From: Terriglobales bacterium
GTDB lineage: Bacteria; Acidobacteriota; Terriglobia; Terriglobales; Acidobacteriaceae
Direction: 5' to 3'
NCBI GenBank assembly: GCA_035632335.1
Contig: DASQHA010000244.1
Span: 16,335 to 80,334 of the forward strand
DNA length: 64,000 bases
A program made the translations under genes and the position numbers. Shown one piece after another: positions 32,224-58,021 of this stretch. The stretch's first letter is position 1; every line of letters starts with the position of its first letter. A model generated the notes under the pieces. That model was not told the origin of the DNA. It was given only the letters and a program-made list of their open reading frames with translations, and ran no database searches.

Positions 32224-32234
32224 CGTGATTCTCC

Positions 32235-42709: not shown

Positions 42710-43096
42710 ATGTTGGCCCTGCTTTCCCTGAAGAACGCGTTTCTGGCTGGCGCTGTTTGTGCGACGCTGTGCGTCCTCGCGCCCGCTTCGTCGGCCGCGC
42801 CAGCGGCCTACACCTACGACATGACGCCGTACGAAACAATGGCTAAGGAATCGCTCAAGCTGGTCGCCGCCGGCGACATGAATGGGGCGTTGAAAAAGGC
42901 GCGGGAGCTGGAAGCAAAGTGGGACGCCGAAGCAACCGACCTGCGGGCGGCTGACCCGGACCTGTGGAACCTGATTGACGGGCAAATGGACGCCGCGATT
43001 GCGGCCCTGATGACGACCGACGCCAAGAAGGCTACCGAGGAGTTGAACAGCTACCTGGAAAAAGCGGCGCGTGTCCCGAAGCCGGACAAGAAGTAG
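42710..43096 (+). CDS. small secreted helical protein, unknown function
   Basis: ATG 42710 preceded by AAAGGAG. Signal peptide MLALLSLKNAFLAGAVCATLCVLAPASSA. The mature part is Ala/Lys/Glu-rich and helical-looking. Confidence 0.6.
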   Translation: MLALLSLKNAFLAGAVCATLCVLAPASSAAPAAYTYDMTPYETMAKESLKLVAAGDMNGALKKARELEAKWDAEATDLRAADPDLWNLIDGQMDAAIAALMTTDAKKATEELNSYLEKAARVPKPDKK

Positions 43097-43118: not shown

Positions 43119-45248
43119 TTACTGCACCAGCATGAGCGGCGTGCGCCAGAAAGCTACCTTCTGACCATTGGGATCGATCACATAGACCTGACAGGTGTAC
43201 TTGCCCGGCTCCAGCTTCCCCAGTGGCACGCTGAACTTCAACGGCAACGCCTTTGATTTGGGATCGAGGCCCTCGGCCACCTGGAGCGGCGCCGTTTCAA
43301 ATGCCTTCACGCTGCCGCGATAGAAGCTCACGGTCGCGACCAGGGGTTGTGTCGTCTCCGCGGTTGGTTCATACGCTTGCAGATAGACGTACATTTCCTG
43401 AGTTCTGTTGAACACGTTCGTCACACTCGGAATCAGTTTCTTTTGGTCCTCGATTAAGGGGTTGGCGGCGTCCAGCTTCTTGTCTTTTTGAGCGTTGAAC
43501 AGCGCGGCGGTCATGTCCATCCGCTGGCTGCTCAACACAACCGAACTGATGGGTAGTACGGTTGTCTGGCTCGTAAGATCGGGAATCACGAACGCCCTCT
43601 CATAGGTCCCGATCTTTCCCGTTTCGTTGTCACGGGCGAGGAACTTGATGCGATACTTTCCGGGCGGAAGAGTAAAGCCTGTATCGTATTCCAGCGGACG
43701 CTTGGCCAATTGCCCCGCCAGCTCACCCTTTAATTTGACATCGATGATATCGCGCACGTTGCCTTTGGTCACACCACGGTCGTCTTTGATCTCACCGATG
43801 AAATCGATCTTCGTACTCTCAGCGCCGCCGTGCAGGGCGAGTTCGAGTTCGCTTCCAGGAATCTTAACCGATATAGGAACGAAATACCGGTCGCGCGCCA
43901 GCCGGAAGTAATCGATCTCCATGGCGATATCGATATCCGTAACCGGGTCTCCCAACATCAACGCCTGCTGGAGCTGCCGTTCCCTGTCGGCGGACGTGAA
44001 CTTGCTGAACTCCTTTCCAGCGTAGTAGCCGCGGCGATAGTCCAGGCCTTTCCCTACCAATGCCATCAAGGGGCCGTTCAGTGAGATCTTAATGCTGCGG
44101 AACTGGCCATCCAGTTTGTCGTTGGTGGGGTAGTATCCGAGGATGTAGTAACTGGAAATCGCCTGCTGTGCCTGCACGATTCCCGTCGCAAGCTCGCCGT
44201 TGTCGAGGAGAGCCTTGCCCCCAGTATCCGCAGCCAGGGTATAGAGAGTCTCCTGCTGTGCCTGGAAGTTGCTTGTCGCCGACCGCGCTGAACTACCGGT
44301 ATACATCCCCTGGCCGCCTGGGGATCCTTTGGTAGCATCCCCGAGGGGAGCGGTCGCAACCAAGCCCCGCGCGTCGATCGGATAAAACGACACGTTAGCA
44401 CGGATAGCCGCGTTGATGGTGGCCTGAAGTTGCGACTGGTTGTCCGTACCGCTTTGTTGCATGCCGCTGGTGAAATACACCAGCGCCTTCTTTTCCTGAA
44501 GAGTCCCTAACATCTTGACCGCCGTTTCGAGAGCCGACAACTGGCGATTGGTATTAAAAATGTTGAACTCCGAATCGTCCTGCTGGAACGCGGCGCCGGC
44601 ATCGGACGCGCTGTCATCGGCGGTGGTGACCCCAAAGCCTTGTCCCTCGCCAATCACCAAGCCCTTAATATCCTTGGACAATTGGTCGCGATCGTCAGTG
44701 AAGTCCTCCACGACCTGGAGGTCCGTGGAGAACTTCATGATCGCCATCAGATCGGATTTGGTCATCTGCGTTGTCAGGAACTTCAGTGCCGCGGCCCGAG
44801 CCCGAAGCTGGTCCCCGATCGGCATGGAGGTCAGGTCAAAGAACATGACGAGGAGACGGCGATCTCGATATTTGATATCGCCGGGTTTCTCCGAAGCGAT
44901 CTGAACGGCGGTCAGGGATTTGACCGGAGCCTCTCGTTTGTCCACCGGTTTCAGTGGTTCCGAAGGCTTAGGCCCTGTCTCGGCTTGCGGAGCCGCGGTT
45001 TCGTCCAGTTTCTGGAATTCGATGAAGCTGATCTTTTGGGGCTTGCCGTCTTCAGTCAGATTGAAATCCTTGGCCGTCAGCCCTTCGATGGGATTGCCGT
45101 TCTTATCCTTGACGATGACGTTTTCGACCACCAGGTTGGACGTGACCTTGAACGTGGGGATCTGCGCCGGCGACTGCGGAGATGCCTGTTGTGCGGCGCC
45201 GGACAACATCCAGATGAGAAGTGCTGCCGCAATGGGTCGCATAGTCAT
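43119..45248 (-). CDS. VWA-domain protein of the acidobacterial VWFA-related type
   Basis: Signal peptide. N-terminal FKVTSNLVVENVIVKDKNGNPIEGLTAKDFNLTEDGKPQKISFIEF resembles the VWFA-related acidobacterial domain as I remember it (TIGR03436). It is followed by a VWA-like core (LLVMFFDLTSM...). Confidence 0.75.
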   Translation of the reverse strand: MTMRPIAAALLIWMLSGAAQQASPQSPAQIPTFKVTSNLVVENVIVKDKNGNPIEGLTAKDFNLTEDGKPQKISFIEFQKLDETAAPQAETGPKPSEPLKPVDKREAPVKSLTAVQIASEKPGDIKYRDRRLLVMFFDLTSMPIGDQLRARAAALKFLTTQMTKSDLMAIMKFSTDLQVVEDFTDDRDQLSKDIKGLVIGEGQGFGVTTADDSASDAGAAFQQDDSEFNIFNTNRQLSALETAVKMLGTLQEKKALVYFTSGMQQSGTDNQSQLQATINAAIRANVSFYPIDARGLVATAPLGDATKGSPGGQGMYTGSSARSATSNFQAQQETLYTLAADTGGKALLDNGELATGIVQAQQAISSYYILGYYPTNDKLDGQFRSIKISLNGPLMALVGKGLDYRRGYYAGKEFSKFTSADRERQLQQALMLGDPVTDIDIAMEIDYFRLARDRYFVPISVKIPGSELELALHGGAESTKIDFIGEIKDDRGVTKGNVRDIIDVKLKGELAGQLAKRPLEYDTGFTLPPGKYRIKFLARDNETGKIGTYERAFVIPDLTSQTTVLPISSVVLSSQRMDMTAALFNAQKDKKLDAANPLIEDQKKLIPSVTNVFNRTQEMYVYLQAYEPTAETTQPLVATVSFYRGSVKAFETAPLQVAEGLDPKSKALPLKFSVPLGKLEPGKYTCQVYVIDPNGQKVAFWRTPLMLVQ

Positions 45249-45250
45249 AG

Positions 45251-48200
45251 TCAGAATTGAAACCTCAGATTGGCTTGCAGGACGCGCATGCCGTTTGCGT
45301 TATTGGGTAATCCGAATTGAGTGCTTCCGATTGTTGTATCCCAATTAGGGAAAGTCACATGGTTGAGCACATTGGTAGCTTGCACACTGATATCGCAGTC
45401 GCGACGCTCCCCGAACTGGAAGTTGCGTTGCACCGAGGCGTTCACATTCAACTGGCCTGGGCCCATAATGATGTTTCGGCCGGCATTTCCCCATTGGCCC
45501 GGCGGCGGGGCGATAAAGGCGGCTGGGTTGAGGTGCAACCCTGATCCGGGAACAACCGCATAAATGGAGGCCCCGGTCAGATTCGGGCGTTCGCTTCCGG
45601 TGACGCCGGTACCTTTCACTGTGAGGGGCAGGATGGGGGTCAGGGGTGCGCCGCTGGCCACCGTGAGGTCGGAGGTAATGGTCCAACCTCTGACGAGGGC
45701 CCCCTTCTTTCCCTTCATCAGCGCCAAGCCTCCCGTTCCCACTTCGTCGCTGAATTGCATACGCACATTCAGAGTCTGGTTGCGGACGCCGCTGGTAGGT
45801 CCCCGCTCGGCCGACAAGTCCAGCCAGTTCTGCGCCACCACGCTCCCCAGAGCATCGTCGAAGGCCTTCGCGAAAATGTAGCTGACGTTGCCGGAAAAGC
45901 CTCCGCGCGCGCGCCGCTGCAACTGCAAGATCGCAGAGTTATAGGTGTTATTGCCGTTTGAAGTTTCGTAGGTATAGCCAGCCGGACCACTCAGCGCGCC
46001 GGTATATCCGCTCGGCACCGAATTCGGCAGGAATTGCTGGGGAAGCCGCGTGCCCTTGGAACCGGAGTACGTGGCGGTCCCCACCAGCGCCCATGCCAGG
46101 CTCTGCTGAACGGAAGCCTGCCAGTTCTGCGAGTAGCCCACGCGGAAGTTCGGGTCGATGGCAAAGGTGTTGGTAGCAGTATTCGCGGGAAGCAGGAGGC
46201 CGGAACCTAGCGTCAACAAGTTGCCAGGCGAACTGGACAAGCGGGCGCTGGTGGAAATCGGCGATTGCTGCGCCATCTGGTTAGCAATGCTCGTGTAGAC
46301 CGAGCTGTTGTAGTAGACGCCGTATCCGGCACGCAGCACCGTGGACCTCTTGGCGAAAGGCCGGTACGCAATGCCGAGACGCGGCGCGAAAGCATGCTTG
46401 TCCGGGCTGACCAGTGAGCTGGGCAGATTCGCCTGGGCAGCGGAGGTGCACCCAGCGACGTACGCGCCACAAACCGGGGCGATCGCCGAGAACCCCGGCG
46501 CGATATTCAGATTCACCAGCCGGCCATACAACTCGGTAATCGGCGCGCCGTATTCCCAGCGAAGGCCCGAGGTGATGGACAGCGCGGGTGTCACTCGCCA
46601 ATCATCGTTGATGAAGGCGTCATACCAGGACGTCCGGAAGTATTTATCGGCATTTCCGAATGCGATCGCGACGGTATCCGCGTAGCCAAGGAAGAAATCG
46701 GCAAAGTCGTGGCCGGTTCCAACCACGCCCACCCCGTTCACAACCTGCTGTGTGGCTGTGCCGTTGAATGTGAACTGCCCGCGGGCATTCTGTTGCAAAA
46801 GAGGATTGATCTGGAGCCGCCGGAAATCTCCGCCGAACGTGAGTTGATGCGGCCCGTGCGACCAGGTCAAACTCTCGCCTACCGCACTCGTCTGATTGCG
46901 ATTGAGCGCCTCTTGCCCGTCGGAAAGACCAGCGAAGCCATTCGAAAAGGACAGACTGGGAGGTCCCCAGTTCAGCGGGTCCCCGCTCGTGCCAGCGATC
47001 CCAGCCTGCTGCGCCACGTTCGCGCGGTTCGCGAAGTACGGCGTCGCCAGGGTCGAGGAACGGCTCCACGTATATCGCACGCTGCTGAAGAGCAGCGGCG
47101 TAATGCGATAGGTCCACGTGACGTCCGCGTTGATCCCCGTCATGGAATTGGCGTCTTGGAAGTTGAAAACGCTCTGACTGGTCCCGTTGCTGCGCTGATA
47201 GCCGAGTGCGCCGCTCAACTGGTTCTTGGGATTGATCCTGACGTTGCTGATTCGCAGGTTTACATTGTCCTGGTTCGTCGTGCCCACCAGCGGCGTCTGG
47301 TAATTGAAACGGTTGTTCGCGTTAAAGTTCGGCAACGGATAAAAGTTCAATAGGCTGGCAGCCTGAGGGCTGATCCGGCTCGGAGGAATGACATTGTTCG
47401 GGAACGGATTCCCGCTGAGCGGATCAAAGATCTGCACTGGCTTCCCTCGCGAGTCCACCGTCTGCGAGAAATCTCCCATGCGCTCGGCCGCAGTGGGCAT
47501 TAGGGCGGAACTGGTGCTTCCGTTTCGGGTTCGAGCCAACTGATAGGTGACGGTGAATGCCGGAGCATTCGTGAACTTCAGCAAGCGCGGAATTCTGATG
47601 GGGCCGCCAACCGTGACCGACATGCGAGATTTGGCATAGGCCGCTTTGGGGGTGTCCTGACCCGTGAGGGAATAACTGCGCGCATCAAGCGCTGAGTTGT
47701 CCAAGAAGGATGAGAAGTTGCCGGTGTATTGTGGCCGGGAACTGCGGCGTCCGTTGCCAAACGACGCCTGGGTATTCCCTCGTCCTCCCGGACCGCCACC
47801 GCCGCGGCCGCCCTGGCCGCCACCGCCCGGACCACCACCGCGGCCGCCTTGCCCGCCACCGGGACCGAATCCACCGCCGCCGCGGCCACCGCCACCACCA
47901 CGGCCCCCACCATCGCCAGGTCCGCCCCCCGGTCCGCCGACGTCACCGAGGCTGGTGATACCCAATGCGCCTGGAATGCCTCCATCTCCGCCGCGGCCGC
48001 CACCGCCGCCGAAGCCCCAATCATTCTGGTGGGGCACACCAAGTCCGCTGCTCACGCTGCCATTGACCACGACCGCATCGGCGCTCTGAGTAATGTCGCC
48101 GGCAGAAATGCTGGCACCGCCTATCCCGACGGCCGACAGATCGCCAGACTGGTTCACATTTGCGAGCTGGAATCCGCCACCTCGAGCGGCCTGTCCTATG

Positions 48201-48730
48201 GAAGGCCGCCCATTCCCCCCAGATGTGCCTCGCCCACCGCCCTGACTCGAAGGCCGGACCGGTGTCTGCACGCTCTCCGCCACTGGCGTGGGCCGCGCCG
48301 CGGCCGGCGTTATGAGGGTGGCACCGGTCGGCGCGACCGCAACCTGTAATGTTACCGTCTCAGCTGCCGGCGCCTGAGGCGGCGCCGAGGCAGCCGCAAC
48401 CGCCGCTTTGATGCCTTCCGGGGACAGCAGCTTTAGGTCCCACTCGGCGCTGGGTGCGGAGACACCCACCCCAACCTCTCTTGTAGACTTCGCGAAGGCC
48501 AACATCTCGATCTCAACGGTCCAAACCCCGTCCGCCAGATCAGGGAACGAATACACACCCTGGTCGTCGGTGGTAGTGAGCACTTTCTTATCGCCCATGG
48601 TGGCAGTCACCGCAGCGCCGGGGACGGGTAATCCACTGTATTTCACGATGCCATGATTCTCAGAAGCGTCCAGCCTCGTCACGGCGATCAACGCGACCAA
48701 CAGGCAAATAATGTAGGTGTGAACGCGCAC
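45251..48730 (-). CDS. CarboxypepD_reg-domain outer-membrane barrel (1159 aa) with about 230-aa Ala/Pro/Gly/Arg low-complexity linker
   Basis: GTG start 48730. Signal peptide, GIVKYSGLPVPGAAVTAT...GVWTVEIEMLAF, a long low-complexity region, barrel, and terminal ..LRFQF. The stop is 2 nt from the VWA gene start. Confidence 0.85.
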   Translation of the reverse strand: MRVHTYIICLLVALIAVTRLDASENHGIVKYSGLPVPGAAVTATMGDKKVLTTTDDQGVYSFPDLADGVWTVEIEMLAFAKSTREVGVGVSAPSAEWDLKLLSPEGIKAAVAAASAPPQAPAAETVTLQVAVAPTGATLITPAAARPTPVAESVQTPVRPSSQGGGRGTSGGNGRPSIGQAARGGGFQLANVNQSGDLSAVGIGGASISAGDITQSADAVVVNGSVSSGLGVPHQNDWGFGGGGGRGGDGGIPGALGITSLGDVGGPGGGPGDGGGRGGGGGRGGGGFGPGGGQGGRGGGPGGGGQGGRGGGGPGGRGNTQASFGNGRRSSRPQYTGNFSSFLDNSALDARSYSLTGQDTPKAAYAKSRMSVTVGGPIRIPRLLKFTNAPAFTVTYQLARTRNGSTSSALMPTAAERMGDFSQTVDSRGKPVQIFDPLSGNPFPNNVIPPSRISPQAASLLNFYPLPNFNANNRFNYQTPLVGTTNQDNVNLRISNVRINPKNQLSGALGYQRSNGTSQSVFNFQDANSMTGINADVTWTYRITPLLFSSVRYTWSRSSTLATPYFANRANVAQQAGIAGTSGDPLNWGPPSLSFSNGFAGLSDGQEALNRNQTSAVGESLTWSHGPHQLTFGGDFRRLQINPLLQQNARGQFTFNGTATQQVVNGVGVVGTGHDFADFFLGYADTVAIAFGNADKYFRTSWYDAFINDDWRVTPALSITSGLRWEYGAPITELYGRLVNLNIAPGFSAIAPVCGAYVAGCTSAAQANLPSSLVSPDKHAFAPRLGIAYRPFAKRSTVLRAGYGVYYNSSVYTSIANQMAQQSPISTSARLSSSPGNLLTLGSGLLLPANTATNTFAIDPNFRVGYSQNWQASVQQSLAWALVGTATYSGSKGTRLPQQFLPNSVPSGYTGALSGPAGYTYETSNGNNTYNSAILQLQRRARGGFSGNVSYIFAKAFDDALGSVVAQNWLDLSAERGPTSGVRNQTLNVRMQFSDEVGTGGLALMKGKKGALVRGWTITSDLTVASGAPLTPILPLTVKGTGVTGSERPNLTGASIYAVVPGSGLHLNPAAFIAPPPGQWGNAGRNIIMGPGQLNVNASVQRNFQFGERRDCDISVQATNVLNHVTFPNWDTTIGSTQFGLPNNANGMRVLQANLRFQF
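47780..48015 (-). repeat. GGN-codon low-complexity tract (Gly/Arg/Pro-rich coding repeat)
   Basis: Encodes GGGGGRGGDGG...GGGRGGGGGRGGGGFGPGGGQGGRGGGPGGGGQGGRGGGGPGGRG. The coding (minus) strand is extremely G-rich, and its antisense gives the Pro-rich shadow ORF 47697..48089. Confidence 0.9.
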
Positions 48731-48741
48731 GGCGACCTTTC

Positions 48742-48804
48742 CTCCGTTACAGAATACACGCGCGACCTTAATATCCTCTGAACCGTAAGCAGAACTCTGT
48801 GGCC
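48742..48804 (-). repeat. 63-nt leader/promoter segment nearly identical to 39521..39583
   Basis: 57 of 63 positions identical by hand alignment. Confidence 0.85.
48751..48782 (-). promoter_or_regulatory. shared box plus -10-like hexamer upstream of 45251..48730
   Basis: Minus strand reads TTCAGAGGATA TTAAGGTCGCG CGTG TATTCT. The hexamer ends 20 nt before GTG 48730, with GGAGG between them. Confidence 0.6.
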
Positions 48805-48843
48805 AGGCACTTGAATTTGAGGTTCCTGCCGAGCCTCACAGCT

Positions 48844-50745
48844 TCACAGAGCGTAGGCCAACGCAATGGCTGCCCAGGAAGTAGCAGACGCGGAGATGAA
48901 CTGGTCCGTCCCATGCGGGAAACCGGATTCGAAATACGGCTGGAATCCGAACGCACGGGAGCGCACGAGCCAGGTGCCGTCTTCGAGCTGAGTGCGAAGC
49001 AGGTACGCCACCCCGTTCTTATAGGCAGCGCTTTTCGGGGACATGCCGCTGGTCTGAAGCGCGTAGAGAGCCTGCCCGGTGGCATAGGCGTCCGAAGTCA
49101 TCGTGGGCAACTGAGCCCAGCCGCCGTCGGCACGCTGGAGCGCCAGCAGGCGCTTCGCTTGCCCGGAAATCTCCGCAGCCGGCACGCGGGACCAAACGAA
49201 TCCAAGCAGCTTGAAGGCTTCGTCTTGGGTGGAAACAGGCGAAGCGGCGCGCAGGAATTCGCGGGCCCGCGCGGTGCGCGCCCGGATGTCTTGTCGCTGG
49301 CCCGGCGGCCCGTACACATCAAGGCCGCGGATGGCCATCGCCGTAAACGGGATGCGGCTGTTGTCGGCCTGAGGCGGTCGAGTGTCTAGAAACACCCAGC
49401 TCCCATCGGCTCGCTGTGTACTGGCCAGATTTACCATTGCCGCATCGGTCGCCGAATTCGGTGGCACCCCTGCTTCGGCTAGTGCAACAAGCCCGTAAGT
49501 GAGCTCGTTGGCGCCGCCGCCAACCTCGCGGCCGAGCATGAGGTCTTCGCGACGTCCAGTCCACACTTCGAGTATCGACTGAACGGGATGCGCTGCGGCT
49601 GCGGCGCCGATGGTGATCCCTCGTGCAGCGCCAAGTTTTATGGCCATCAGCGGAAGGATCTGGTTGTGACACGAGATGCATTTCCTGGTCTCGTAGGAGA
49701 CTGGGCTGGTGGGCGCCAATCTGGCTAGGGCCTGTTCGATGGCGGCCCGAGCCGATCGCGGCTTCTCTCGCGCCGCCGGCGGCAACGGAGGCGCTATGGC
49801 GGTCGCTCCCGCTGTTCGCAGGACGCGGGCCACTTCCGTGTCGCCCTGCATCAACGCCCAGTCCAGCGCGGTGCGGCCCGCCTTATCGCGGGCTCCGGGG
49901 TCGGCGGCTTTCTCGATCAACAGGCGCACCATTGCCGGGTCTGGACGAGGAGCCGCCGCCGCCATCATCAGCGGCGTCACATCCTGCTGGCTCTTAGCGT
50001 TGGGATTTCCTCCGCGTTCCATCAGCAGCCGCGCTGTGTCCAACTGCCCCTGAAAGGCCGCGGCCGCGACGATCGGAAACCTCCCCCTTGGATTCGGGTT
50101 GGCTCCTAGATCCAGGAGCTCCCGGATCACCACCGTGTTCGCGAGCGAAAAATTCGCCAGGCTTGGCGCCCCTGACTTTGCCAGGTCCTTTAGCTCGATT
50201 CCGGCAGCCGCGAGGATCTGGCGCGTCTCCGGATGCTCGCCATAGACGATTCGAAGCAGCTCGGCTTCCTCATTCACAGACGCTTTTGGACCGGATCCGC
50301 GAGCGAGCAACAACCGCATGACCTCGGTGTTTCCGCGGCGCGCGGCAGTGACTAGCGCGGTGCTGCCGTCCTTCAATCTGGCGTTAGCTTCGGCGCCGTG
50401 GTCGAGCAGCAGGCGGACTTTCGTTGTATCGCCGGTGGCCCACATGAGCGCCGTGGCGCCGCCCTTGCTGGAGGCGTTCACGTCGGCGCCCGCGTCGATC
50501 AGGACGCGCAGACAGTCCGGCGCCGCGAAGGCAGCCGCGTACATTAAGGCCGTCGCACCGATGTCATCGCGCGTGTTCGGATCGGCGCCGGACTTGAGCA
50601 ACGCAGTAACTGCACGAGTGTCGTTGCCGCGGACAGCGTCCAGCAGCCGCATTTCTGCGGCGCCAACAGCTCCCGTCAGGATCAGAGCGATGATCGCCGT
50701 CAAGCCGAAAGCCGCGACATCGAGTTTCGCGTGCGTCACCTCCAC
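48844..50745 (-). CDS. ankyrin-repeat / CXXCH / prenyltransferase-terpene-cyclase-like toroid fusion protein
   Basis: N-terminal hydrophobic segment, at least 7 ankyrin-like repeats (G.T.L..A......V..LL..GA..N), a single CISCH motif, and C-terminal repeats with QRADGSW / QRADGGW / QLEDGTW (QW-like motifs). Confidence 0.8.
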   Translation of the reverse strand: MEVTHAKLDVAAFGLTAIIALILTGAVGAAEMRLLDAVRGNDTRAVTALLKSGADPNTRDDIGATALMYAAAFAAPDCLRVLIDAGADVNASSKGGATALMWATGDTTKVRLLLDHGAEANARLKDGSTALVTAARRGNTEVMRLLLARGSGPKASVNEEAELLRIVYGEHPETRQILAAAGIELKDLAKSGAPSLANFSLANTVVIRELLDLGANPNPRGRFPIVAAAAFQGQLDTARLLMERGGNPNAKSQQDVTPLMMAAAAPRPDPAMVRLLIEKAADPGARDKAGRTALDWALMQGDTEVARVLRTAGATAIAPPLPPAAREKPRSARAAIEQALARLAPTSPVSYETRKCISCHNQILPLMAIKLGAARGITIGAAAAAHPVQSILEVWTGRREDLMLGREVGGGANELTYGLVALAEAGVPPNSATDAAMVNLASTQRADGSWVFLDTRPPQADNSRIPFTAMAIRGLDVYGPPGQRQDIRARTARAREFLRAASPVSTQDEAFKLLGFVWSRVPAAEISGQAKRLLALQRADGGWAQLPTMTSDAYATGQALYALQTSGMSPKSAAYKNGVAYLLRTQLEDGTWLVRSRAFGFQPYFESGFPHGTDQFISASATSWAAIALAYAL

Positions 50746-50778
50746 CTCACCACTGAGCTGATGCTCCCCCCTGTTGCT

Positions 50779-51963
50779 TCACTTGCCCGGCGCCACGACG
50801 AAGATGCCCTTCCCGGCAACTGGAACGAAGATGTGTCTGTTTTTCGCATTAACGGCAACCGAGTGGCTCCCGAGGGGAATGTTGACAACGAACTTTTCAG
50901 TACTGCCGTTAACCACGGCCACCCCTCCGTTTGCCGAGGAACGCGAGAAGTAGTAGTTATTGGACCCCGGATCGTACCAGACTTCGTCTGCGTCGGCCCC
51001 TTGGGGCACGGTCTTTAAAATCTTCCCGGTTTTAGGATCGATAGACACGCCGCCCACGCTGCCACACACGGTCATTAGACGCCCGTTCGGCCCAACCGTG
51101 AGGCCGCTAACGGTAAGGCCGAGCAATCCTCCGGTACACTCCACCGGGAAGCTCCTGACCGGATTCGGGAGCTTGTGGGGATCGAACACATCGATACGAT
51201 TCTTCTTCCCAGGAACGTTCTGGTAAAACAACCCGGTCTGGCGAACCCAAACGGGTTGTTCCATGCCATCCTGTTCCGCCGGATAAACGTAGTGGCCCAA
51301 CACGGCCCCATCGATAACGGAGATGAAAGTGATGAGCGGCGGTGAATCACCATCATTCTCAGTTAGCAGAATCCGATTGATCGGATCATAAGCCATTTCA
51401 TCGACCCGTCCCTTCCCGCCGGTTGGGATCGACCGAATGATGGCAGTGCCCGGTTTCGCTGCGTCGGCTTCAATGATGTTGCCATCACCGTCTCCAGCCC
51501 ATACGTGGCCGAGGTTATCGGTGACGACTCCATTTGGCCCAGCGCAGTGGCGCAGCTCTCTGGGTTGGCCAGGGCAAGGTCTGCTCCCGGTGTAGTGACC
51601 GCGTCCGATGAACCCTAGGAACGTATCGGTGGCGGAATCAACCAAGTCGATGGCGTTGTTCGCACGGTCGGCGAGGTAGTACCTTTGCGTGGAGTTGTCG
51701 TTCCAACTGACATCGAAGGCGCCGAGATTGGTAGGCGAACCCTTGACCAGAACCGGTGCAGTAAACATCTGCCCGGATTCACGTGGCGCGGGGGTGGATT
51801 GGGCGGACTTGGTTGACCGCGGGGTTTGGCCCGATGACGATGGTGCACCTCCAACGGCGGCCAGCAATGCCGAGCAGACGATGGAGCAGATCCTGATTCG
51901 TATGGTCGTCATGGTTACGAGCGTTTTCGTGACAGACTTTCTGGCTTGCATTACAGGAGGCAC
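50779..51963 (-). CDS. secreted beta-propeller-like protein; start uncertain (GTG 51963, ATG 51951 or ATG 51912)
   Basis: Signal-like MTTIRIRICSIVCSALLAAVGG. Repeated blade-like segments (YYLADRANNAIDLVD, VWAGDGDGNIIEAD, NRILLTENDGD, NYYFSRSSANGGVAVVN, HIFVPVAGKGIFVV). Confidence 0.7.
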   Translation of the reverse strand: MPPVMQARKSVTKTLVTMTTIRIRICSIVCSALLAAVGGAPSSSGQTPRSTKSAQSTPAPRESGQMFTAPVLVKGSPTNLGAFDVSWNDNSTQRYYLADRANNAIDLVDSATDTFLGFIGRGHYTGSRPCPGQPRELRHCAGPNGVVTDNLGHVWAGDGDGNIIEADAAKPGTAIIRSIPTGGKGRVDEMAYDPINRILLTENDGDSPPLITFISVIDGAVLGHYVYPAEQDGMEQPVWVRQTGLFYQNVPGKKNRIDVFDPHKLPNPVRSFPVECTGGLLGLTVSGLTVGPNGRLMTVCGSVGGVSIDPKTGKILKTVPQGADADEVWYDPGSNNYYFSRSSANGGVAVVNGSTEKFVVNIPLGSHSVAVNAKNRHIFVPVAGKGIFVVAPGK

Positions 51964-51983
51964 GACCCTTTACGCCTCATTTC

Positions 51984-52015
51984 AGGATACGCGGCCAACC
52001 TTAATATCCGCTGAA
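51984..52015 (-). promoter_or_regulatory. shared box plus -10-like hexamer upstream of 50779..51963
   Basis: Minus strand reads TTCAGCGGATA TTAAGGTTGGC CGCG TATCCT. Confidence 0.6.
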
Positions 52016-52046
52016 CGCTTGCCCAGCGCGGTAGCTTGCCTGGGCG

Positions 52047-53114
52047 TTATGGGTTGCCGATGTCCAGAGTCCAGGACCCGAGCGACATCTCCTGTGTGCC
52101 AGGACGCCTCAGAATCGGTTCCACACCGGTCATCAGTGTGATCGCCGTGACGCGGTCCGCGATCGAACCCACTGTGCTCGATATGACGATCGCATCACCA
52201 GCCTTCAGATCCGTGAGCGCGATGCTCGGACTGCTCTCCAACATCTGCTGCAAGTCATCGCCGCGCGGTCCGCCTCCTTGCGCGGACGCCCCGCGGCCTT
52301 TCCCAGTCCCTTCCGTGCTCCCGTGAACTCGCTGGGCTATGGCTTGCGCAACTTGGGGCTGGAGCTTCCGCAAACTTGAATCTCCACTTACCTTCACCAC
52401 CAGCGCCTTCTTGGTATCGAGGTCGTTAATCCGTAGTTCATTCTGTTGCGGATTGAGCGAGAGGATGACACCGGCGATAGTGCGGAAACTTCCGGACACG
52501 ACTTCCTCGGCTATCATCCTGCTTCCGTCGCCAGTGCGGTTTCCGCGCGCCCGGACTTGATCTCCGGTCTTGATCTCACCCAGTGTAGACGGGCGAGCAT
52601 CCACGAACCGAACGGAATCGGGCGCGTAGCGTCTCACGTTGGCGTTCGACGCGAGCGTGATCGCTACAGAGGTAACACTCCCCGAAGTGCGCACGTTGAT
52701 TACGACCTGGTCGGCGCCCGCCATTGTGACCAAACCCACGACGCCGCGGCGATCCCAGTCTGCGCGGTCGGCCGCCTGCTGCTGGGCAATATCCCCCTGA
52801 GACATGACCACAACGAGCGTGGCTGCGACAGCGTTGCCATTCGCCCCGGCGCTCCCACGGGCCAGCACGCGATCACCCACGGAAATATCATTGAGTGTTA
52901 TTGTGGCGGCTTTCTGGAGGTCGGTTTCCCTCGGGGCAACTCGGCGGAAACTGGCTGAAGGCTGGGCGGTCACCACCAGCTCGGTCCCGGTATCTGTCAT
53001 GAGTGTGATCCGGCGGCCGCCGAGATCCACATTAGTGACCGCACCCAGCACGCGGTCCGTTTGCGCGAAAACCGGGACGATAAGAACAAAGGCGAGACAA
53101 CAAGCGAGCTTCAT
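52047..53114 (-). CDS. secreted repeat protein, unknown function
   Basis: Signal peptide MKLACCLAFVLIVPVFA. Three to four internally similar segments of the form G.V..V......I.[LV]........V......R........[LI]..I..GD.V.ARG. Gly-rich loop (GTGKGRGASAQGGGPRG). Confidence 0.65.
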   Translation of the reverse strand: MKLACCLAFVLIVPVFAQTDRVLGAVTNVDLGGRRITLMTDTGTELVVTAQPSASFRRVAPRETDLQKAATITLNDISVGDRVLARGSAGANGNAVAATLVVVMSQGDIAQQQAADRADWDRRGVVGLVTMAGADQVVINVRTSGSVTSVAITLASNANVRRYAPDSVRFVDARPSTLGEIKTGDQVRARGNRTGDGSRMIAEEVVSGSFRTIAGVILSLNPQQNELRINDLDTKKALVVKVSGDSSLRKLQPQVAQAIAQRVHGSTEGTGKGRGASAQGGGPRGDDLQQMLESSPSIALTDLKAGDAIVISSTVGSIADRVTAITLMTGVEPILRRPGTQEMSLGSWTLDIGNP

Positions 53115-53156
53115 TAGATCCTCCCTAGTATCAGGCGAGCGTTGCCCTTGTGCTCC

Positions 53157-54164
53157 TCATTTTGTCTCGTACACGAGGATTTCGGAAGGCTGCTCGCCCC
53201 GGTGTGGTACGGCGGCGAAGAGTTTCCCCAATTCTGGTACGAAGAGTCCGGTTCGGGTGCCCGGTGGGGTAGGATAGCGCGCGATCCTGTCGTAATGATC
53301 GGTGTCTTTCTGCTGCAAGACATCGATGAAGCCTTGACCTCCGATCACGTAGACCCGGCTTCTTTCGGAGTCGTAAAAGAGGTCGTCCGTATCGCCAATA
53401 ATTTCGGGGGATGCTACTGTCTGGCCACTCTCTGTGTCGAAGACCAGCAAACGCGCTGGCATGCGGCATCCGCTAAATAGCCGATGATGAGCCTCATCGA
53501 GCGCCATCGGGAAACACGTCTTCGCGGTGGTAGTGGGCCAACGGGCGAGGATCGTTCCCTTCACAAAGTCCGCGACTTGGACTTCTTGCTTATCGGGGAC
53601 ATTCACGAAAACGCGAGTCCCCGTCTTCTCAAGCTGGAACGATTCGGGGTGAGCATCCACGACAATCTCCCGGATCAGCTTCCCGCTGGAATCCAGAATC
53701 CCTAGCGCCCCGGCTCCCTGTGTCCGTCCCCTCAGCCCCTTTTCCCCGCCATATCCGACGGCCACGCCGCGGCTCCGGGCGTCGTAGCGAATATTATCGG
53801 CGTCGTCTGAGAACTTAACCGTATCGAGGAGCTGAAAGGTCGCACCATCGAAGATTCGCGTGGAGCCGTCAACACCGTTGGCGGCATACAGGCGATTGGT
53901 CGAAGCATCGTAGAACAATCCTTGCGGCTCCGCCAAACCCGGCAGCGTCCGGACCCGCTGGCCGGATTGCAGGTCGATCACTTCGACAGTGTTGTTGCCC
54001 AGGGCGGACACGAAGAGACGCTGGCCTTTGATGTCCACGCTGAGGTGATCCATCCGTCCATCGACGTTGGGCAGCGCGATGCGCGTTTTCAGCGACAAAG
54101 CCGAGGTCTCTTGCCCGGCGGCCAAACTGCTCAAGAGTAGAAGTGTTGCGATGCAGTATTTCAT
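53157..54164 (-). CDS. secreted beta-propeller protein (paralog of 41607..42656)
   Basis: Signal peptide MKYCIATLLLLSSLAAG. Collinear similarity with 41607..42656 along the whole length. Confidence 0.8.
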   Translation of the reverse strand: MKYCIATLLLLSSLAAGQETSALSLKTRIALPNVDGRMDHLSVDIKGQRLFVSALGNNTVEVIDLQSGQRVRTLPGLAEPQGLFYDASTNRLYAANGVDGSTRIFDGATFQLLDTVKFSDDADNIRYDARSRGVAVGYGGEKGLRGRTQGAGALGILDSSGKLIREIVVDAHPESFQLEKTGTRVFVNVPDKQEVQVADFVKGTILARWPTTTAKTCFPMALDEAHHRLFSGCRMPARLLVFDTESGQTVASPEIIGDTDDLFYDSERSRVYVIGGQGFIDVLQQKDTDHYDRIARYPTPPGTRTGLFVPELGKLFAAVPHRGEQPSEILVYETK

Positions 54165-54200
54165 TTGACCTCGTCCTCACTCTCACTATTGCGGGCGCTC

Positions 54201-54821
54201 CTACTTTGCGCCGTAGGCGAAGTCATCGAACAACGTCACGCTGTCGGCCTTGGTCCAGACACCGACTTTTCCCGCGTCCTTGAACTTCTCGTCGTCCCAT
54301 TCAATAGCTTTCTTACCGTCGAATGTCACCGTGAAGTGACTGCCCTGGAAATCGACCCTCAAAGTGTGCCACTCGCCAGTGGCCACTTTCATGTTCGTCC
54401 GCTTCCTTTCAGTGCGCCGCGCGTTGACGGTGTCGTAAATGGTGACATTGTCTTCGAGCGCATTGGCGCGAGCGACGTAGTAATTGTTCGAATCCTTGGC
54501 CCGCCAGATGACACCACCCGCCTGGTCCGTCTTGCCGGAGATTGGCTTAAACTTCACTTCGACAAAACCGTCCTTAAGGCTGCTGTCGTCCTTGATGCAA
54601 ACCGGATAGGTGGCCTCACCGGATTGCTTTAAAACGTTTGGCTTGCTAGGTGCCGTAGGGTCGCTCTCGATTGTCCACTTCGCGTCGCCGGTGCCGGTTT
54701 TGGTGCCGGTCCAGTTGGGCGGCAACGCGCCGGTTTTGAGGTTGTCGAAATTCACGGTTTGGGCCAGCGCTGCGCTGGCCAGTATCGTGGTAGCGAGTAT
54801 CACTACTGCTCGTGTTCTCAT
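54201..54821 (-). CDS. secreted concanavalin/LamG-fold protein (paralog 3 of 3)
   Basis: Signal peptide. QTVNFDNLKTGALPPNWTGTKTGTGDAKWTIESDPTAPSKPNVLKQSGEATYPVCIKDD... is nearly collinear with 41000..41620. ATG preceded by GAGGAG. Confidence 0.85.
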   Translation of the reverse strand: MRTRAVVILATTILASAALAQTVNFDNLKTGALPPNWTGTKTGTGDAKWTIESDPTAPSKPNVLKQSGEATYPVCIKDDSSLKDGFVEVKFKPISGKTDQAGGVIWRAKDSNNYYVARANALEDNVTIYDTVNARRTERKRTNMKVATGEWHTLRVDFQGSHFTVTFDGKKAIEWDDEKFKDAGKVGVWTKADSVTLFDDFAYGAK

Positions 54822-54877
54822 TGGGGTCTCCTCTGTCTGCCTTTCTTTTCATGCGGTGCATCGTGAGTTGTGCCGGT

Positions 54878-55894
54878 TCACTCCCGGTCCAGAAACACCG
54901 CGGCGCTGTGGGTCCGCGGCTGGAAAGCATAGATCTTGTTTCGCGCGGCGTCGAACGCAATCGTGTTCGCGCCTTTCTCGGTCGGCACGGTCTGAATAAG
55001 TTCTAACGCGTCAACTTCGAAGACGTCGATGACGCCTGGATCGCCGACGGCGGCGTAGAGATGACGGCGGGCGGCGTTGAGGAAAAGCACGTCCGGCCCG
55101 CCGCTCAATTCCAGCGTGCGCTGCACTTCACCGGTGTCCGCCGAGAGCACGATAAGTTTCTTCGCATCGCAAGCGCAGAACAGCCGCCGTGTCTTCGAAT
55201 CGAGCGCAAGCCCGTGAGGTCCCGCCGCTGGGACTTTGTAAGTGCGTGCGATTTCACCCGGCTGGTTTGACTTGATGCCTACAATGACGGGCGGGTCGGA
55301 TATATTCACGAAGAACATTTCCTGTTGCGGGTCGAAAACGGCCCAGCGCGTCCGGCCCGGCACTGTGATGGTGCTCAGCGCCGTTCGCTTCGCCGCGTCG
55401 ACGATGATCACGGTCGCAGGGTTACCGCCGTGTGCAACCAGCAGCAGATTGCGTTTGGGGTCATGGGCCAGTCCGTTGGGGCTCGCGCCAACCGGGACTT
55501 TCACGAGCGCGCCCTCATCGTTGAACGGGAAGATCCCGACCGTGTTTTCTCCCCGATTGGAGGTGAACACCAAGTTCGCTTCGGGAGTCACCAGCGCGCC
55601 GGCGACGCCCTTGAGGTTCGGAATCGAATGAAGAAAACGATCGTTTGCGCCATCAATGACGTCCAAGGAATCGTTCGCAGTGTGGGCAACGAAAATTCGG
55701 CCCGTGGCCGGATGTATGTCCGCGTGATCGAATCCGCCGGGGCCTATGTGCGCAGGCAACTCGATCTGGCCGTGCAGCTGTAGAGGCCCTTTCGGCTGGC
55801 TGAGCGCCGGCACGCCTAGGAAACTCATCATCACCATCACGACGGCAAGCGCCTCCACTATTCTGCGTTTCCTGCTGCTGAGTTCTGTGTTCAT
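54878..55894 (-). CDS. secreted YVTN-like beta-propeller protein
   Basis: Signal or anchor segment. Blades such as RIFVAHTANDSLDVIDGA, LVFTSNRGENTVGIF, LLLVAHGGNPATVIIVD, MFFVNISDPPVIVGI, RLFCACDAKKLIVLS, HLYAAVGDPGVIDVFEV, KIYAFQP. The ATG overlaps the kinase stop (ATGA). Confidence 0.8.
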   Translation of the reverse strand: MNTELSSRKRRIVEALAVVMVMMSFLGVPALSQPKGPLQLHGQIELPAHIGPGGFDHADIHPATGRIFVAHTANDSLDVIDGANDRFLHSIPNLKGVAGALVTPEANLVFTSNRGENTVGIFPFNDEGALVKVPVGASPNGLAHDPKRNLLLVAHGGNPATVIIVDAAKRTALSTITVPGRTRWAVFDPQQEMFFVNISDPPVIVGIKSNQPGEIARTYKVPAAGPHGLALDSKTRRLFCACDAKKLIVLSADTGEVQRTLELSGGPDVLFLNAARRHLYAAVGDPGVIDVFEVDALELIQTVPTEKGANTIAFDAARNKIYAFQPRTHSAAVFLDRE

Positions 55895-57321
55895 GTCGGC
55901 ACACTTGTCCTAATCGAATTCAATGGAATGCTCACTCGAAATACAGATCCTTGTCCAGGTGCGCTCTCCACCTGGATGTTAGCGCCGTGGGCCTCGGCGA
56001 TCCATTGCGCGATGGAGAGCCCTAACCCAACGCCGCCCATGTCCCGCGAACGCACCTTATCGGCACGATAGAAGCGCTCGAAGATGTTCGGCAGATCCTC
56101 GGCTGCGATGCCGATACCAGTGTCTCTGACTTCGACGATGCCGAATCCATCTACTTGGTGCATCCCGACCGACACGCGGCCGCCCGAAGGCGTGTACTTG
56201 AGAGCATTGTCGATCAGAATCAGAAACAACTGGCGAAGTGCATTCGGGTCTCCCTTGATGTTCATCGGCTGTTCCGGGACCTGCCAGTCGAATGCAACGT
56301 TTCGAGGCCCGGCCAGTGTCGAACCTTGGGAGCAGGATTCCTTGACCGCCGTGCCGAGATCCATGTCCGAAACTTGTAGCGTCGCAGCCCCTGAATCCGC
56401 GCGAGCGAGCGTCATCAGATCGTCGAGCAACACGCTGGTGCGCTCAGATTCGGCGAGGACTCCGCGCAGGACCTCTTCATACTCGGGAGCCGTGCGGCTC
56501 TTTTGCAGTGCTACTTCCGTGGTCGTCCGGACGAGCGCCACAGGCGTTCGCAACTCGTGCGATGCGTCGGCAGTGAACCGGACGATTTTCTTATAGGCGG
56601 CGTCCAACCGCTTAAACGCGGTATCGAGCCGCGCCATCATGTCGTTCAAAGTTTCGGAGAGCCTCTGCAACTCATCGCCTGTCTCCGGAACCGCCAACCG
56701 CTGTGATAGATTGTGCCCGCTGATCGAGCGCGCGGTATTTGTAATCTGGTCAACAGGGGCGAGCGCGCGCCGACTCATCCAGTAACCGCTCACCGTAGCG
56801 ACGATCAGCACCGCAGGCACGGACCATAGGATCAGCCACCCGAAGCGATGCAGCACGCCGTAAAATCCGCCCAGCGGAGTGGCCAACTGCACTATGTATT
56901 GTTGACCATCGGCTTGAACCCTCGCCGTGAGGATTCGTAGCGGACTACTGGCAACATCGATCGTCTTGAGCTCCGCGCGGTTCGTTTGCGGGCTGCCTAC
57001 CGGTATGTTGTACGGACGAATCGAACCCGACTGAAAGATCCAGTTTCCACGCGCATCGCTGATCTGCAGGAGATCGCCTCCAGGCTTCATCCCTGAGTGT
57101 TCGCGAAACTCATACCGAACGTCCTCCACCGTACTTCCGGGGAACACTCGCTGGACAAATCGTTGGACGCCGTTGAAACGAACCGCGAGCTCATCATCCA
57201 CCGCAGTGTGAACACTTTGCCGCATGACCAGAAACATCCCCGCGCCGAACGATGAAAGCGCTATGGTGAGGATCATGAAATACCAGGCTGTGAGCCGGAC
57301 GCGAATGGACGCGATCTTCAT
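55891..57321 (-). CDS. sensor histidine kinase, heavy-metal-sensor-like architecture
   Basis: SIRVRLTAWYF N-terminus, two TM segments flanking an about 130-aa periplasmic loop, HAMP, H-box ADASHELRTPVALV, DTGIGIAAEDLPNIFERFYRAD, GGVGLGLSIA. Confidence 0.9.
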   Translation of the reverse strand: MKIASIRVRLTAWYFMILTIALSSFGAGMFLVMRQSVHTAVDDELAVRFNGVQRFVQRVFPGSTVEDVRYEFREHSGMKPGGDLLQISDARGNWIFQSGSIRPYNIPVGSPQTNRAELKTIDVASSPLRILTARVQADGQQYIVQLATPLGGFYGVLHRFGWLILWSVPAVLIVATVSGYWMSRRALAPVDQITNTARSISGHNLSQRLAVPETGDELQRLSETLNDMMARLDTAFKRLDAAYKKIVRFTADASHELRTPVALVRTTTEVALQKSRTAPEYEEVLRGVLAESERTSVLLDDLMTLARADSGAATLQVSDMDLGTAVKESCSQGSTLAGPRNVAFDWQVPEQPMNIKGDPNALRQLFLILIDNALKYTPSGGRVSVGMHQVDGFGIVEVRDTGIGIAAEDLPNIFERFYRADKVRSRDMGGVGLGLSIAQWIAEAHGANIQVESAPGQGSVFRVSIPLNSIRTSVPT

Positions 57322-57995
57322 GCCTCGCCCTCATGCAAGCGGTACCCGAAGCCGCGCACAGTGTGAATCAGCTTGACGTTGTAGCCGTCGTCCACCTTGT
57401 TCCGCAAATGCTTGATGAAGACGTCCAGCGTATTGTTTTCGACCTCTTCATGGGTGCCCCAGACAGTGTTGATGATGGTTTCACGTCGCAGGACGCGTCC
57501 CGCGTTGCGCAACAGTAACTCAAGGAGTAGGTACTCTTTTCTGGTAAGGGAAATTCGCTCGTCCCCACGGTAGACCTCGTGTGTGGATGGGTCGAGCACC
57601 AGATCGGCCGTCTTCAGCTTAGATGATCGCAAAGCAGACGCTCGGCGGGAAATGGCGTGTAATCGGGCCACGAACTCGACAAAGGAGAATGGCTTGGTCA
57701 GGTAATCGTCGGCACCGAGATTCAATGCCTTAACAAGGTCCGCCTCCCCGTCGCGAGCGGTCAGGATCAGGATGGGTATACCGTCGTCAGCCTTTCGGAG
57801 CCGCCGCGCGACCTCGAAGCCATCAAGACCGGGCAGCATGATGTCCAGCACCATCGCCTCGAAGCTGAGTGTCTCCGCCAGTGCGAGACCTTCTGTGCCC
57901 GTGTGGGCGAGAGTCACCGAATGACCCTGCTCCTCCAGACCTTTCTTGAGGACGTCGGCCATCTTCCTTTCGTCTTCGACGATCAGCACGCGCAC
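57318..57995 (-). CDS. OmpR-family response regulator
   Basis: Receiver plus winged-helix domain (LTRKEYLLLELLLRN...TVRGFGYRL). GTG start 57995. ATGA overlap with the kinase gene. Confidence 0.95.
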   Translation of the reverse strand: MRVLIVEDERKMADVLKKGLEEQGHSVTLAHTGTEGLALAETLSFEAMVLDIMLPGLDGFEVARRLRKADDGIPILILTARDGEADLVKALNLGADDYLTKPFSFVEFVARLHAISRRASALRSSKLKTADLVLDPSTHEVYRGDERISLTRKEYLLLELLLRNAGRVLRRETIINTVWGTHEEVENNTLDVFIKHLRNKVDDGYNVKLIHTVRGFGYRLHEGEA

Positions 57996-58021
57996 TGTGA
58001 AACCCCAGGGCTCCTGGCAAG

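Follow-up and report, generated by a model that had tools for sequence, protein, structure and literature searches.

Gene Content of the Locus

The window analysed here is a stretch of 64,000 nucleotides of contig DASQHA010000244.1 from a Terriglobales bacterium (Acidobacteriota). At positions 43119–57995 it contains a cluster of ten minus-strand genes with a two-component system at its head. All ten are genuine, and a repeated promoter box probably places them under one common regulator. An original prediction had described the cluster as a co-regulated extracytoplasmic module under this two-component system, and that description stands only once modified, as the boundaries differ and far fewer genes make up the conserved core. 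The gene list itself is confirmed, as all ten open reading frames (ORFs) lie at the coordinates first given for them and have the domain content expected.

The leading gene encodes an OmpR/PhoB-family response regulator (57318–57995) comprising a Response_reg (REC) and a Trans_reg_C (winged helix) domain. It is followed by a sensor histidine kinase (55891–57321) with two transmembrane segments and the HAMP, HisKA, and HATPase_c domains, and by YVTN1 (54878–55894), an exported YVTN/YncE-like beta-propeller whose gene is ATGA-coupled to the kinase gene. The ATGA overlaps are verified at both the regulator/kinase and the kinase/YVTN1 junctions. LamG1 (54201–54821) is an exported LamG-like/DUF1080 (3keto-disac_hyd) protein that matches PF06439 with 34.5 bits against a cutoff of 26.8. 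The next two genes, both core members in the sense given below, encode the exported YVTN beta-propeller YVTN2 (53157–54164) and the secreted protein Rep355 (52047–53114), which has a triple OB-fold (DUF5666/CusF-like) repeat. Prop394 (50779–51963) is exported, has no Pfam family, and is distantly YVTN-like, on the weak evidence of a match to TIGR03866 at E = 2.5e-4 and a BLAST match to YVTN1 at E = 7e-6.

The remaining three genes encode larger proteins. AnkTor (48844–50745) contains an N-terminal signal or anchor, ankyrin repeats, a CxxCH motif, and a squalene-cyclase-like alpha/alpha-toroid repeat domain at the C-terminus. Barrel1159 (45251–48730) comprises CarboxypepD_reg and OMP_b-brl_4 (E = 2.7e-158), and its Gly/Arg-rich region is verified at residues about 100–335, with 76 glycines in 235 residues. 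After a verified gap of 2 nt follows VWA709 (43119–45248), an exported acidobact_VWFA protein that matches TIGR03436 over residues 31–410 with 271.5 bits against a cutoff of 81.25. Signal-like N-terminal hydrophobic segments are present on 8/8 non-regulatory products, as judged by a hydropathy heuristic and not by SignalP, which agrees with the export signals first noticed there.

Of about 38 domain-supported genes in the whole window, about 33 lie on the minus strand when the ORF and Pfam results are counted. The co-directionality of the cluster thus carries little weight, because the bias is window-wide. Rfam and tRNA scans found no RNA genes in the window.

The 19-nt Promoter Box

The box has the consensus GTTCAGnGGATaTTAAGGT, a direct repeat TTCAG-N6-TTAAG with an 11-bp period. 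It is non-palindromic and has no flanking repeats. Six copies occur in the window against 0.03 expected, and none of 100 shuffles contained more than one match. In position weight matrix (PWM) scoring the six sites reach 28–33 bits, and the next best site 12.7 bits. Each copy is oriented to a gene start with the start codon 34–77 nt away, and a -10-like hexamer (TATTCT, TATCCT, TACTCT, or TATGAT; TAyyCT/TATGAT) lies 8–9 nt downstream of every box. Tandem repeats of this kind, positioned over the -35 region, are known binding sites of OmpR/PhoB-family regulators, pho boxes being one example. Since the repeat takes the -35 place at this distance from the hexamer, the layout is predicted to be that of an activator-dependent promoter.

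Box 6 (ATTCAGTTGATCTTAAGGT; 58037–58055 on the minus strand, in an element at 58022–58055) lies 5' of the regulator gene and is a predicted autoregulation site. It is a degenerate copy that overlaps a sigma-70-like promoter, TTGATC-16-TATGAT, the sole promoter call of this type above noise in the region; elsewhere, the generic scans for promoters and terminators did not rise above chance. Boxes 5 and 4, the two intergenic elements seen in the original prediction, are genuine. Box 5 (GTTCAGCGGATATTAAGGT; 51998–52016, minus strand, with the -10-like TATCCT) lies 5' of Prop394 and AnkTor, and its position matches that of the relatives' box preceding the first transporter gene. Box 4 (GTTCAGAGGATATTAAGGT; 48765–48783, minus strand, with TATTCT) lies 5' of Barrel1159 and VWA709. 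The two-component system heads the cluster and probably controls it, as the promoter regions of the regulator, of Prop394/AnkTor, and of Barrel1159/VWA709 have the box in common.

The other three copies are found outside the ten-gene cluster. Box 3 (40904–40922, plus strand) precedes a unit of LamG2, Prop349, and a 142-amino-acid protein, box 2 (40731–40749, minus strand) precedes Prop341, and box 1 (39544–39562, minus strand) precedes Barrel968 and Barrel857. Because half of the six sites lie here, the box-marked gene set extends over 33991–58055, beyond the coordinates of the cluster. In the PWM scan of the window, boxes were found only before the regulator gene, barrels, propellers, and LamG2; the Czc/ChrA metal-efflux, oxidase, and PQQ (pyrroloquinoline quinone) genes of the window have no box.

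A search with the strict box pattern led to six metagenome contigs, 6/6 of which contain orthologues of regulon genes (regulator and kinase at 86–90% identity, Barrel968 at 73–79%, Rep355 at 66–71%, or YVTN2 at 90%). In other contigs the box occurs solely where orthologues of the regulator and kinase, or their accompanying regulon genes, occur. The loci L086, L088, L092, and L098 have one box before the regulator gene and another before the first barrel gene. The box was not found in 85 AnkTor-anchored loci, nor at three solitary Barrel968 orthologues of 62–71% identity that have no neighbouring two-component system. Since those loci lack the box, box and two-component system travel together.

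A reading of the box as a promoter for an extracytoplasmic function (ECF) sigma factor was rejected, as the sigma gene of the window (33312–34082) is missing from the relatives' operons, which retain the box. The box also lacks what we take to be ECF-type promoter motifs. The roughly 900 bp upstream of the regulator gene (57996–58918) are poor in genes and contain a weak box-like site on the opposite strand (58144–58162, 12.7 bits). L088 and L089 have a divergent Rep355 promoter, of which this site may be what is left. An additional box in divergent orientation is present in L089 (at 1584, driving Rep355) and also in L086/L087 (L086 7428).

Conservation in Related Genomes

Two sets of loci were compared with the window. 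The first comprises 84 loci of about 20 kb anchored on AnkTor (mostly with a 10-kb flank per side), which were searched with all cluster proteins, and the second comprises 13 loci anchored on the box, Rep355, or a barrel. A lack of co-conservation in related genomes, named with the original prediction as a ground for refuting it, is found for the ten-gene set; with AnkTor as the anchor, 0/84 loci hold it. Only the LamG-like gene recurs there, and only in the closest relatives. Orthologues of the regulator and kinase, the propellers, Rep355, an orthologous barrel, and the VWA protein are in none of the 84. In the second set, YVTN1, Prop394, AnkTor, a Barrel1159 orthologue, and the VWA protein occur in 0/13 loci.

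The proposal of one dedicated envelope machine does not survive this comparison, as its products are not co-conserved and the relatives' orthologous two-component system heads a different, compact operon. It was seen on two contigs, L092 and L098, which differ in their upstream neighbours, and reads box-regulator-kinase-YVTN2-Rep355-box-Barrel968-Barrel857. The identities to the window are 88–89% for the regulator, 86–87% for the kinase, 81–82% for YVTN2, 78% for Rep355, 75% for Barrel968, and 77–79% for Barrel857, and the regulators of close relatives overall are 88–90% identical to that of the window. The conserved core thus consists of the regulator, kinase, YVTN2, Rep355, Barrel968, and Barrel857. 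The compact operon is followed 12 nt downstream by the gene of a LigI-like lactonase (Amidohydro_2) with a twin-arginine translocation (Tat) signal (TRRDIL), at 16681–17643 in L092 and 15477–16439 in L098. Its best solved relative is 2-pyrone-4,6-dicarboxylate hydrolase (PDB 4d8l, E = 2e-40).

Near relatives already differ widely in how the genes around the box are ordered. In L088, YVTN and Rep355 are divergent from box-regulator-kinase-box-Barrel968, after which housekeeping genes follow. The pair of Rep355 and a barrel is found in L092 and L098 as well, and is the sole remnant in the more distant genomes L093 and L094. L091 (1099–1527) has a rhodanese gene in place of Rep355, and its YVTN2 is 90% identical to that of the window.

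When compared to the compact operon, the window has YVTN1 and LamG1 inserted between the kinase gene and YVTN2, and about 12.4 kb inserted between Rep355 and box-Barrel968. The core barrels lie 12.5 kb away and keep their box. The 12.4-kb insert comprises five minus-strand genes (Prop394, AnkTor, Barrel1159, VWA709, and Prop341) and a three-gene plus-strand unit, with four box copies. From these comparisons, the operon of the window appears to be a conserved core of soil Acidobacteria that was split and enlarged by genome-specific genes.

The Two-Component System

The regulator has the phospho-acceptor context LDIMLPGLDG, and the kinase has a periplasmic loop of about 125 amino acids and the HisKA motif SHELRTP. 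Their architecture (two transmembrane segments, loop, HAMP, HisKA, and HATPase in the kinase; REC and winged helix in the regulator) is that of heavy-metal sensor two-component systems. The top-ranked family of the kinase is TIGR01386, which matches over the full length including the sensor region, at 268.9 bits below its curated cutoff of 292.55. The best NCBIfam match of the regulator is TIGR01387, at 243 bits below a cutoff of 279.2. A comparison of the sensor loop with the PDB gave no informative match and no similarity to solved sensor domains, CusS included. The label "heavy-metal-type", which had been given to this system, is therefore apt at the level of the top-ranked families, but both proteins stay under the curated cutoffs and the efflux genes have no box.

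A second regulator–kinase pair of the heavy-metal type is present at 25740–27874 (minus strand), with a regulator 47% and a kinase 31% identical to those of the first pair. It heads a minus-strand run (13564–27874) of DUF1259, chromate transporter, OEP, AcrB/CzcA-type pump, HlyD, DUF1259, and two multihaem cytochrome genes. The box is absent from this run.

Barrels and the VWA Protein

Barrel968 (36583–39489) and Barrel857 (33991–36564), both on the minus strand, are the two TonB-dependent-transporter-like barrels of the core. For Barrel968, the AlphaFold model is of moderate confidence (pLDDT, the predicted local distance difference test score, 64.8) and matches PfeA, FepA, YddB, FusA, PirA, and SusC/RagA with E about 1e-20, a probability of 1.00, and a target TM-score of about 0.6; the best match is PfeA. 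With that moderate model confidence, the pair is taken to have the transporter fold of a 22-strand barrel and an N-terminal plug. Read directly, both sequences contain the plug-like motif IREVRINQNPFSPEYDK..GRIEILTKPG. Just before the plug region both have a QITV/EITV stretch (QITVAD, EITVGG) that resembles a TonB box, a resemblance only, and both end in a C-terminal Phe. They also carry an N-terminal CarboxypepD_reg domain of the SusC/RagA type.

Neither barrel matches the Pfam Plug family (PF07715), and PF00593 (TonB_dep_Rec) is matched by Barrel857 only, with 30.7 bits. A barrel profile searched against the PDB reaches Cir at E = 0.0055, a weak match. The core barrels are thus very divergent, as sequence searches against solved structures give almost nothing. 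The family is large, with 8000 candidates that all have E <= 1e-10.

Only residues 614–1159 of Barrel1159 align to the core barrel profile. This protein, too, has a terminal Phe. No plug motif of the core type was detected in it, and Gly/Arg-rich low complexity takes the place of that motif. The Gly/Arg segment is encoded by imperfect GC-rich tandem DNA repeats at 47769–48037 with a spacing of 9–27 nt. A homologue of VWA709 (E < 1e-10) was found in none of the related loci fetched, all of which were anchored on other genes.

Exported Propellers, LamG-like Proteins, and Rep355

The plus-strand unit behind box 3 consists of LamG2 (41000–41620), which is 68% identical to LamG1, the YVTN propeller Prop349 (41607–42656), and the small exported 142-amino-acid protein (42668–43096). 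Prop341 (39642–40667, minus strand) is an exported YncE-like propeller. The five propellers of the window are paralogues with 21–35% identity. Propellers score 41–67 bits against TIGR03866 (cutoff 287.3) and 39–49 bits against NF052280, the YncE family (cutoff 400). YVTN1 touches the Lactonase propeller family with 23.9 bits against a cutoff of 21.7. YVTN2 is a generic YVTN propeller whose orthologues (81–90% identity) come after the kinase gene in relatives. YVTN1 is treated as a lineage-specific insertion because the relatives' operons have no orthologue of it. LamG1 likewise appears to be lineage-specific in this operon, and Prop394, of which no homologue was found in any related locus fetched, is a putative lineage-specific addition.

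The model of Rep355 has three tandem OB folds (pLDDT 83.2), and a fold search with it returned only generic tandem OB folds and no functional match. Relatives of Rep355 show faint CusF_Ec/DUF5666 matches, and some sources name them CusF. Read directly, the sequence has no Met/His-rich motifs. A literature search for DUF5666 turned up no functional study. The family of LamG1 and LamG2 also occurs at 3758–6277 (minus strand), where an 839-amino-acid protein has a GMC-oxidoreductase C-terminal domain fused to DUF1080.

The AnkTor Family and Its Neighbours

The family of AnkTor is large, well conserved, and uncharacterised; C356, C359, and H360 are invariant in it, and it is found in Acidobacteriota, Planctomycetota, and Verrucomicrobiota. 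A scan of a genome collection returned 80 loci. The closest relatives have a LamG-like (DUF1080) gene and AnkTor together with a Fe3+-type ATP-binding cassette (ABC) importer, comprising a binding protein, a permease of about 513 amino acids, and an ATPase, and ChrB, DUF1259, Czc-like efflux, or multihaem cytochrome genes lie near those loci. AnkTor was rejected as an anchor of the ten-gene unit, as only the LamG-like neighbour recurs, in the company of the importer, ChrB, and DUF1259. AnkTor, the LamG-like protein, and the ABC importer are instead a candidate for a separate periplasmic module. A consistent neighbourhood of LamG and ABC importer is seen in L001, L002, L085, and the P0006 contig.

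Families of the AnkTor neighbourhood are scattered elsewhere in the window. An ABC importer of the type that flanks AnkTor lies at 10321–13624 (minus strand), about 35 kb from the AnkTor gene, and consists of a binding protein (12566–13624), a 533-amino-acid permease (10980–12581), and an ATPase (10321–11256).

Proposed Mechanism and Alternatives

The locus is probably an autoregulated two-component regulon for inducible outer-membrane uptake, similar to PfeRS–PfeA, with a core that was split and enlarged, and not a single machine. The kinase would sense a periplasmic signal and phosphorylate the OmpR/PhoB-type regulator. The regulator would bind the direct-repeat box over weak -35 regions and activate its own operon and five other units. 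The barrels would import a scarce substrate into the periplasm, and the soluble exported proteins may bind or process it. By sensing the imported substrate in the periplasm, the kinase would raise the whole set, as PfeS and PfeR do for PfeA and PfeE. Enlargement would have occurred by units that have their own box copy or were inserted behind an existing box, the presumed additions being YVTN1 with LamG1, Prop394 with AnkTor, Barrel1159 with VWA709, LamG2 with Prop349 and the small exported protein, and Prop341. As the substrate we favour a metal or metal chelate, a guess that draws on the family of the two-component system, on the CusF-like OB protein, and on the metal-related genes in the surrounding DNA.

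Several points weigh against an uptake regulon. Heavy-metal-responsive systems, the closest kin of this regulator–kinase pair, normally switch on efflux or detoxification, not uptake. The box-marked set contains no inner-membrane transporter and no TonB-ExbBD genes, and the window has no homologue of the lactonase that closes the compact operons. Barrel968 orthologues at 62–72% identity often stand alone, and across the phylum the barrel is therefore not bound to the circuit. The moderate confidence of the Barrel968 model and its lack of a Pfam Plug domain count here as well. The action of the regulator through the box is itself predicted from position and co-occurrence. Finally, the window comes from a metagenome-assembled genome, in which chimerism is a formal possibility; the box copies at each junction speak against it.

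The reading of the locus depends first on whether the ten genes belong together at all, and in what sense. That their products form one dedicated, conserved envelope machine under the kinase is very improbable. In its favour, the genes adjoin one another in the same direction and show short gaps, ATGA couplings, and the 2-nt barrel/VWA junction, all structural products look exported, and the shared boxes suggest co-regulation. Against this, 0/84 AnkTor loci have members other than the LamG-like gene, the relatives' operons lack YVTN1, LamG, Prop394, AnkTor, Barrel1159, and VWA, the minus-strand bias is not particular to the cluster, and Rep355 and YVTN2 have as their conserved partners two barrels beyond its limits, Barrel968 and Barrel857. 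At the other extreme, there is hardly any chance that the genes are accidental neighbours from expanded families and the box a dispersed repeat or the relic of a mobile element. The OMP_b-brl_4, acidobact_VWFA, and YVTN families are hugely expanded in Acidobacteria, gene order is fluid among close relatives, and terminator and promoter scans are at chance level, all of which would fit such an accident; but the box is always oriented to the downstream gene at a fixed distance from a -10-like hexamer, is not palindromic, lacks flanking repeats, recurs at the orthologous sites of seven further contigs, and is missing from loci without the two-component system.

The nature of the signal and the substrate separates two further readings from the uptake regulon preferred here. 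In a response to metal excess, a CusS/CopS-like kinase would sense toxic periplasmic metal, and the regulon would sequester it by CusF-like OB repeats, propellers, and VWA and remodel the outer membrane, with no import. This is rather unlikely, even though the top family matches are a heavy-metal sensor kinase and regulator, Rep355 relatives have the faint CusF_Ec/DUF5666 matches, the window is rich in ChrA, CzcCBA-like efflux, DUF1259, and multihaem cytochromes, and AnkTor orthologues elsewhere adjoin ChrB, DUF1259, and Czc genes. The kinase and regulator score below the curated cutoffs and the sensor loop is unlike any solved sensor domain, that of CusS included; no efflux or oxidase gene has a box; Rep355 lacks Met/His-rich motifs; and a conserved output of two TonB-dependent-transporter-like importers (and a lactonase in relatives) is atypical for detoxification. 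An organic substrate is a serious rival because of the lactonase, the DUF1080 proteins, and the SusC-like N-terminal domain. The locus would then take up and process an organic nutrient such as a glycoside, a sugar lactone, or an aromatic lactone, as an analogue of a polysaccharide-utilisation locus in which SusC-like barrels import and DUF1080/LamG proteins, lactonase-like propellers, and a LigI-type lactonase act in the periplasm. The SusC/RagA-type domain and fold matches of the barrels, the 3-keto-disaccharide-hydrolase family of the LamG-like proteins, the touch of YVTN1 on the Lactonase family, the Tat-exported lactonase that closes the compact operons, and the GMC oxidoreductase–DUF1080 fusion and PQQ dehydrogenases of the window all point this way. 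We nevertheless regard it as unlikely, as the LamG genes are outside the conserved core and the lactonase is absent from the window, the regulon has no SusD-like partner, glycoside hydrolase, or sugar transporter, and the type of the two-component system points to metals.

Lanthanides and the Nearby PQQ Genes

The core may be conceived as a Terriglobia route for the uptake of a lanthanide, a lanthanide chelate, or PQQ that supplies the numerous PQQ dehydrogenases of this group, an idea we hold to be improbable. It arises because Terriglobia lack the known PQQ importer PqqU (PMC12124388), because the pairing of barrel and propeller is LutH/LutB- and PqqU/YncE-like, and because PQQ dehydrogenase genes flank the regulon. 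If so, the core would amount to a cofactor-uptake system that has not been described before and that has a defined regulator box. The link was rejected as the main explanation, since the propellers are far below the TIGR03866 and YncE cutoffs and there is no support from synteny. No PQQ dehydrogenase lies within 10 kb of the compact operons of L092 and L098, and one is found in 10/98 loci overall. Both PQQ dehydrogenases of the window have the D-x-D motif. This motif also occurs in glucose dehydrogenases that do not use lanthanides, and is thus judged non-diagnostic.

A PQQ-dependent dehydrogenase at 60764–62835 (minus strand) is split by a frameshift between 61732 and 61975 into an N-terminal part (61732–62835) that covers positions 1–239 of the Pfam PQQ profile and a C-terminal part (60764–61975) that covers 240–595. 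It is either a pseudogene or an assembly error. Another PQQ dehydrogenase is fused to a cytochrome c (30067–32256), and an IS630-like transposase (28703–29820, plus strand), composed of two overlapping ORFs (HTH_32/HTH_23, then DDE_3), sits between it and the second two-component system. Between the regulon and the split dehydrogenase lies an exported Met-zincin (58919–60205, minus strand) with the motif HEVGHALGLRH and DUF4953/Matrixin matches, which has no box and no homologue in related loci.

Significance

Acidobacteria are among the most abundant soil bacteria. To our knowledge, their CarboxypepD_reg/OMP_b-brl_4 barrel, YVTN, DUF5666, and VWA families are very large and almost wholly uncharacterised. 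The locus offers a testable regulatory handle on them, namely a defined 19-nt box and a predicted cognate regulator–kinase pair, and the compact operon is a minimal system for studying what these barrels import. It also exemplifies how a regulon can grow when gene units that bring their own promoters are inserted. A neat run of co-directional genes may be deceptive, as the unit is set here by the shared promoter element and by comparison with relatives, not by adjacency. There is no evidence for a new principle; what the locus contains is a clean motif and a tractable operon in an understudied phylum.

Comparison with Known Systems

CusRS, CopRS, CzcRS, and HprRS: These systems share with the locus the best-scoring families (TIGR01386 and TIGR01387), the same domain architecture, and predicted autoregulation. 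In contrast, the predicted regulon here consists of transporters and exported beta-propellers, not of efflux pumps or oxidases, and the scores are below the cutoffs. The CusR box is palindromic, unlike the direct-repeat box of the window.

SusC/RagA: The transporters of Bacteroidota resemble the core barrels in their fold matches and in having a carboxypeptidase-regulatory-like domain ahead of the TonB box and the plug (TonB-box-like and plug-like motifs in the core barrels) and of a large barrel. However, a SusD-like lipoprotein is lacking here. The partner is a secreted triple-OB protein, and control is by a classical two-component system.

PqqU–YncE and lut/ped: The yncD (pqqU)–yncE genes of E. 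coli and the lut/ped clusters (LutH with LutB/PedA2 and an ABC transporter; PMC9291206, PMC6839425, bioRxiv 10.1101/2022.06.07.495086) also pair the gene of a TonB-dependent transporter with that of an exported, YVTN/YncE-like seven-bladed propeller. PQQ dehydrogenase genes near the regulon in the window are a further likeness. The regulon differs in having no ABC transporter, and the PQQ dehydrogenases are box-less and not conserved beside the compact operons.

PfeRS–PfeA: In the PfeS/PfeR–PfeA–PfeE system, the imported substrate is sensed in the periplasm and processed by a periplasmic hydrolase (PMC8001512). The locus resembles PfeRS–PfeA (and PirS/PirR–PirA) of P. aeruginosa in that regulator and kinase are directly upstream of, and co-directional with, the transporter in L086, L088, L092, and L098. 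A predicted regulator site precedes the transporter gene, the top fold match of the Barrel968 model is PfeA, and the gene of a periplasmic hydrolase ends the operon in L092 and L098. In outline, the compact operon thus follows the Pfe order of regulator, kinase, transporter, and terminal hydrolase, and the propeller and OB-protein genes stand in between. Even so, the barrels have no detectable sequence relationship to PfeA, occur as a pair, and have the N-terminal CarboxypepD_reg domain. They are accompanied by YVTN and triple-OB partners, a LigI-type lactonase replaces the PfeE-type esterase, and the operon of the window is split and enlarged. At the level of sequence or regulon, the system falls short of both the PfeRS type and the heavy-metal systems in the features tested. 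In its proposed logic it is a PfeRS-type circuit that is related to the heavy-metal two-component systems and equipped with uncharacterised accessory proteins.

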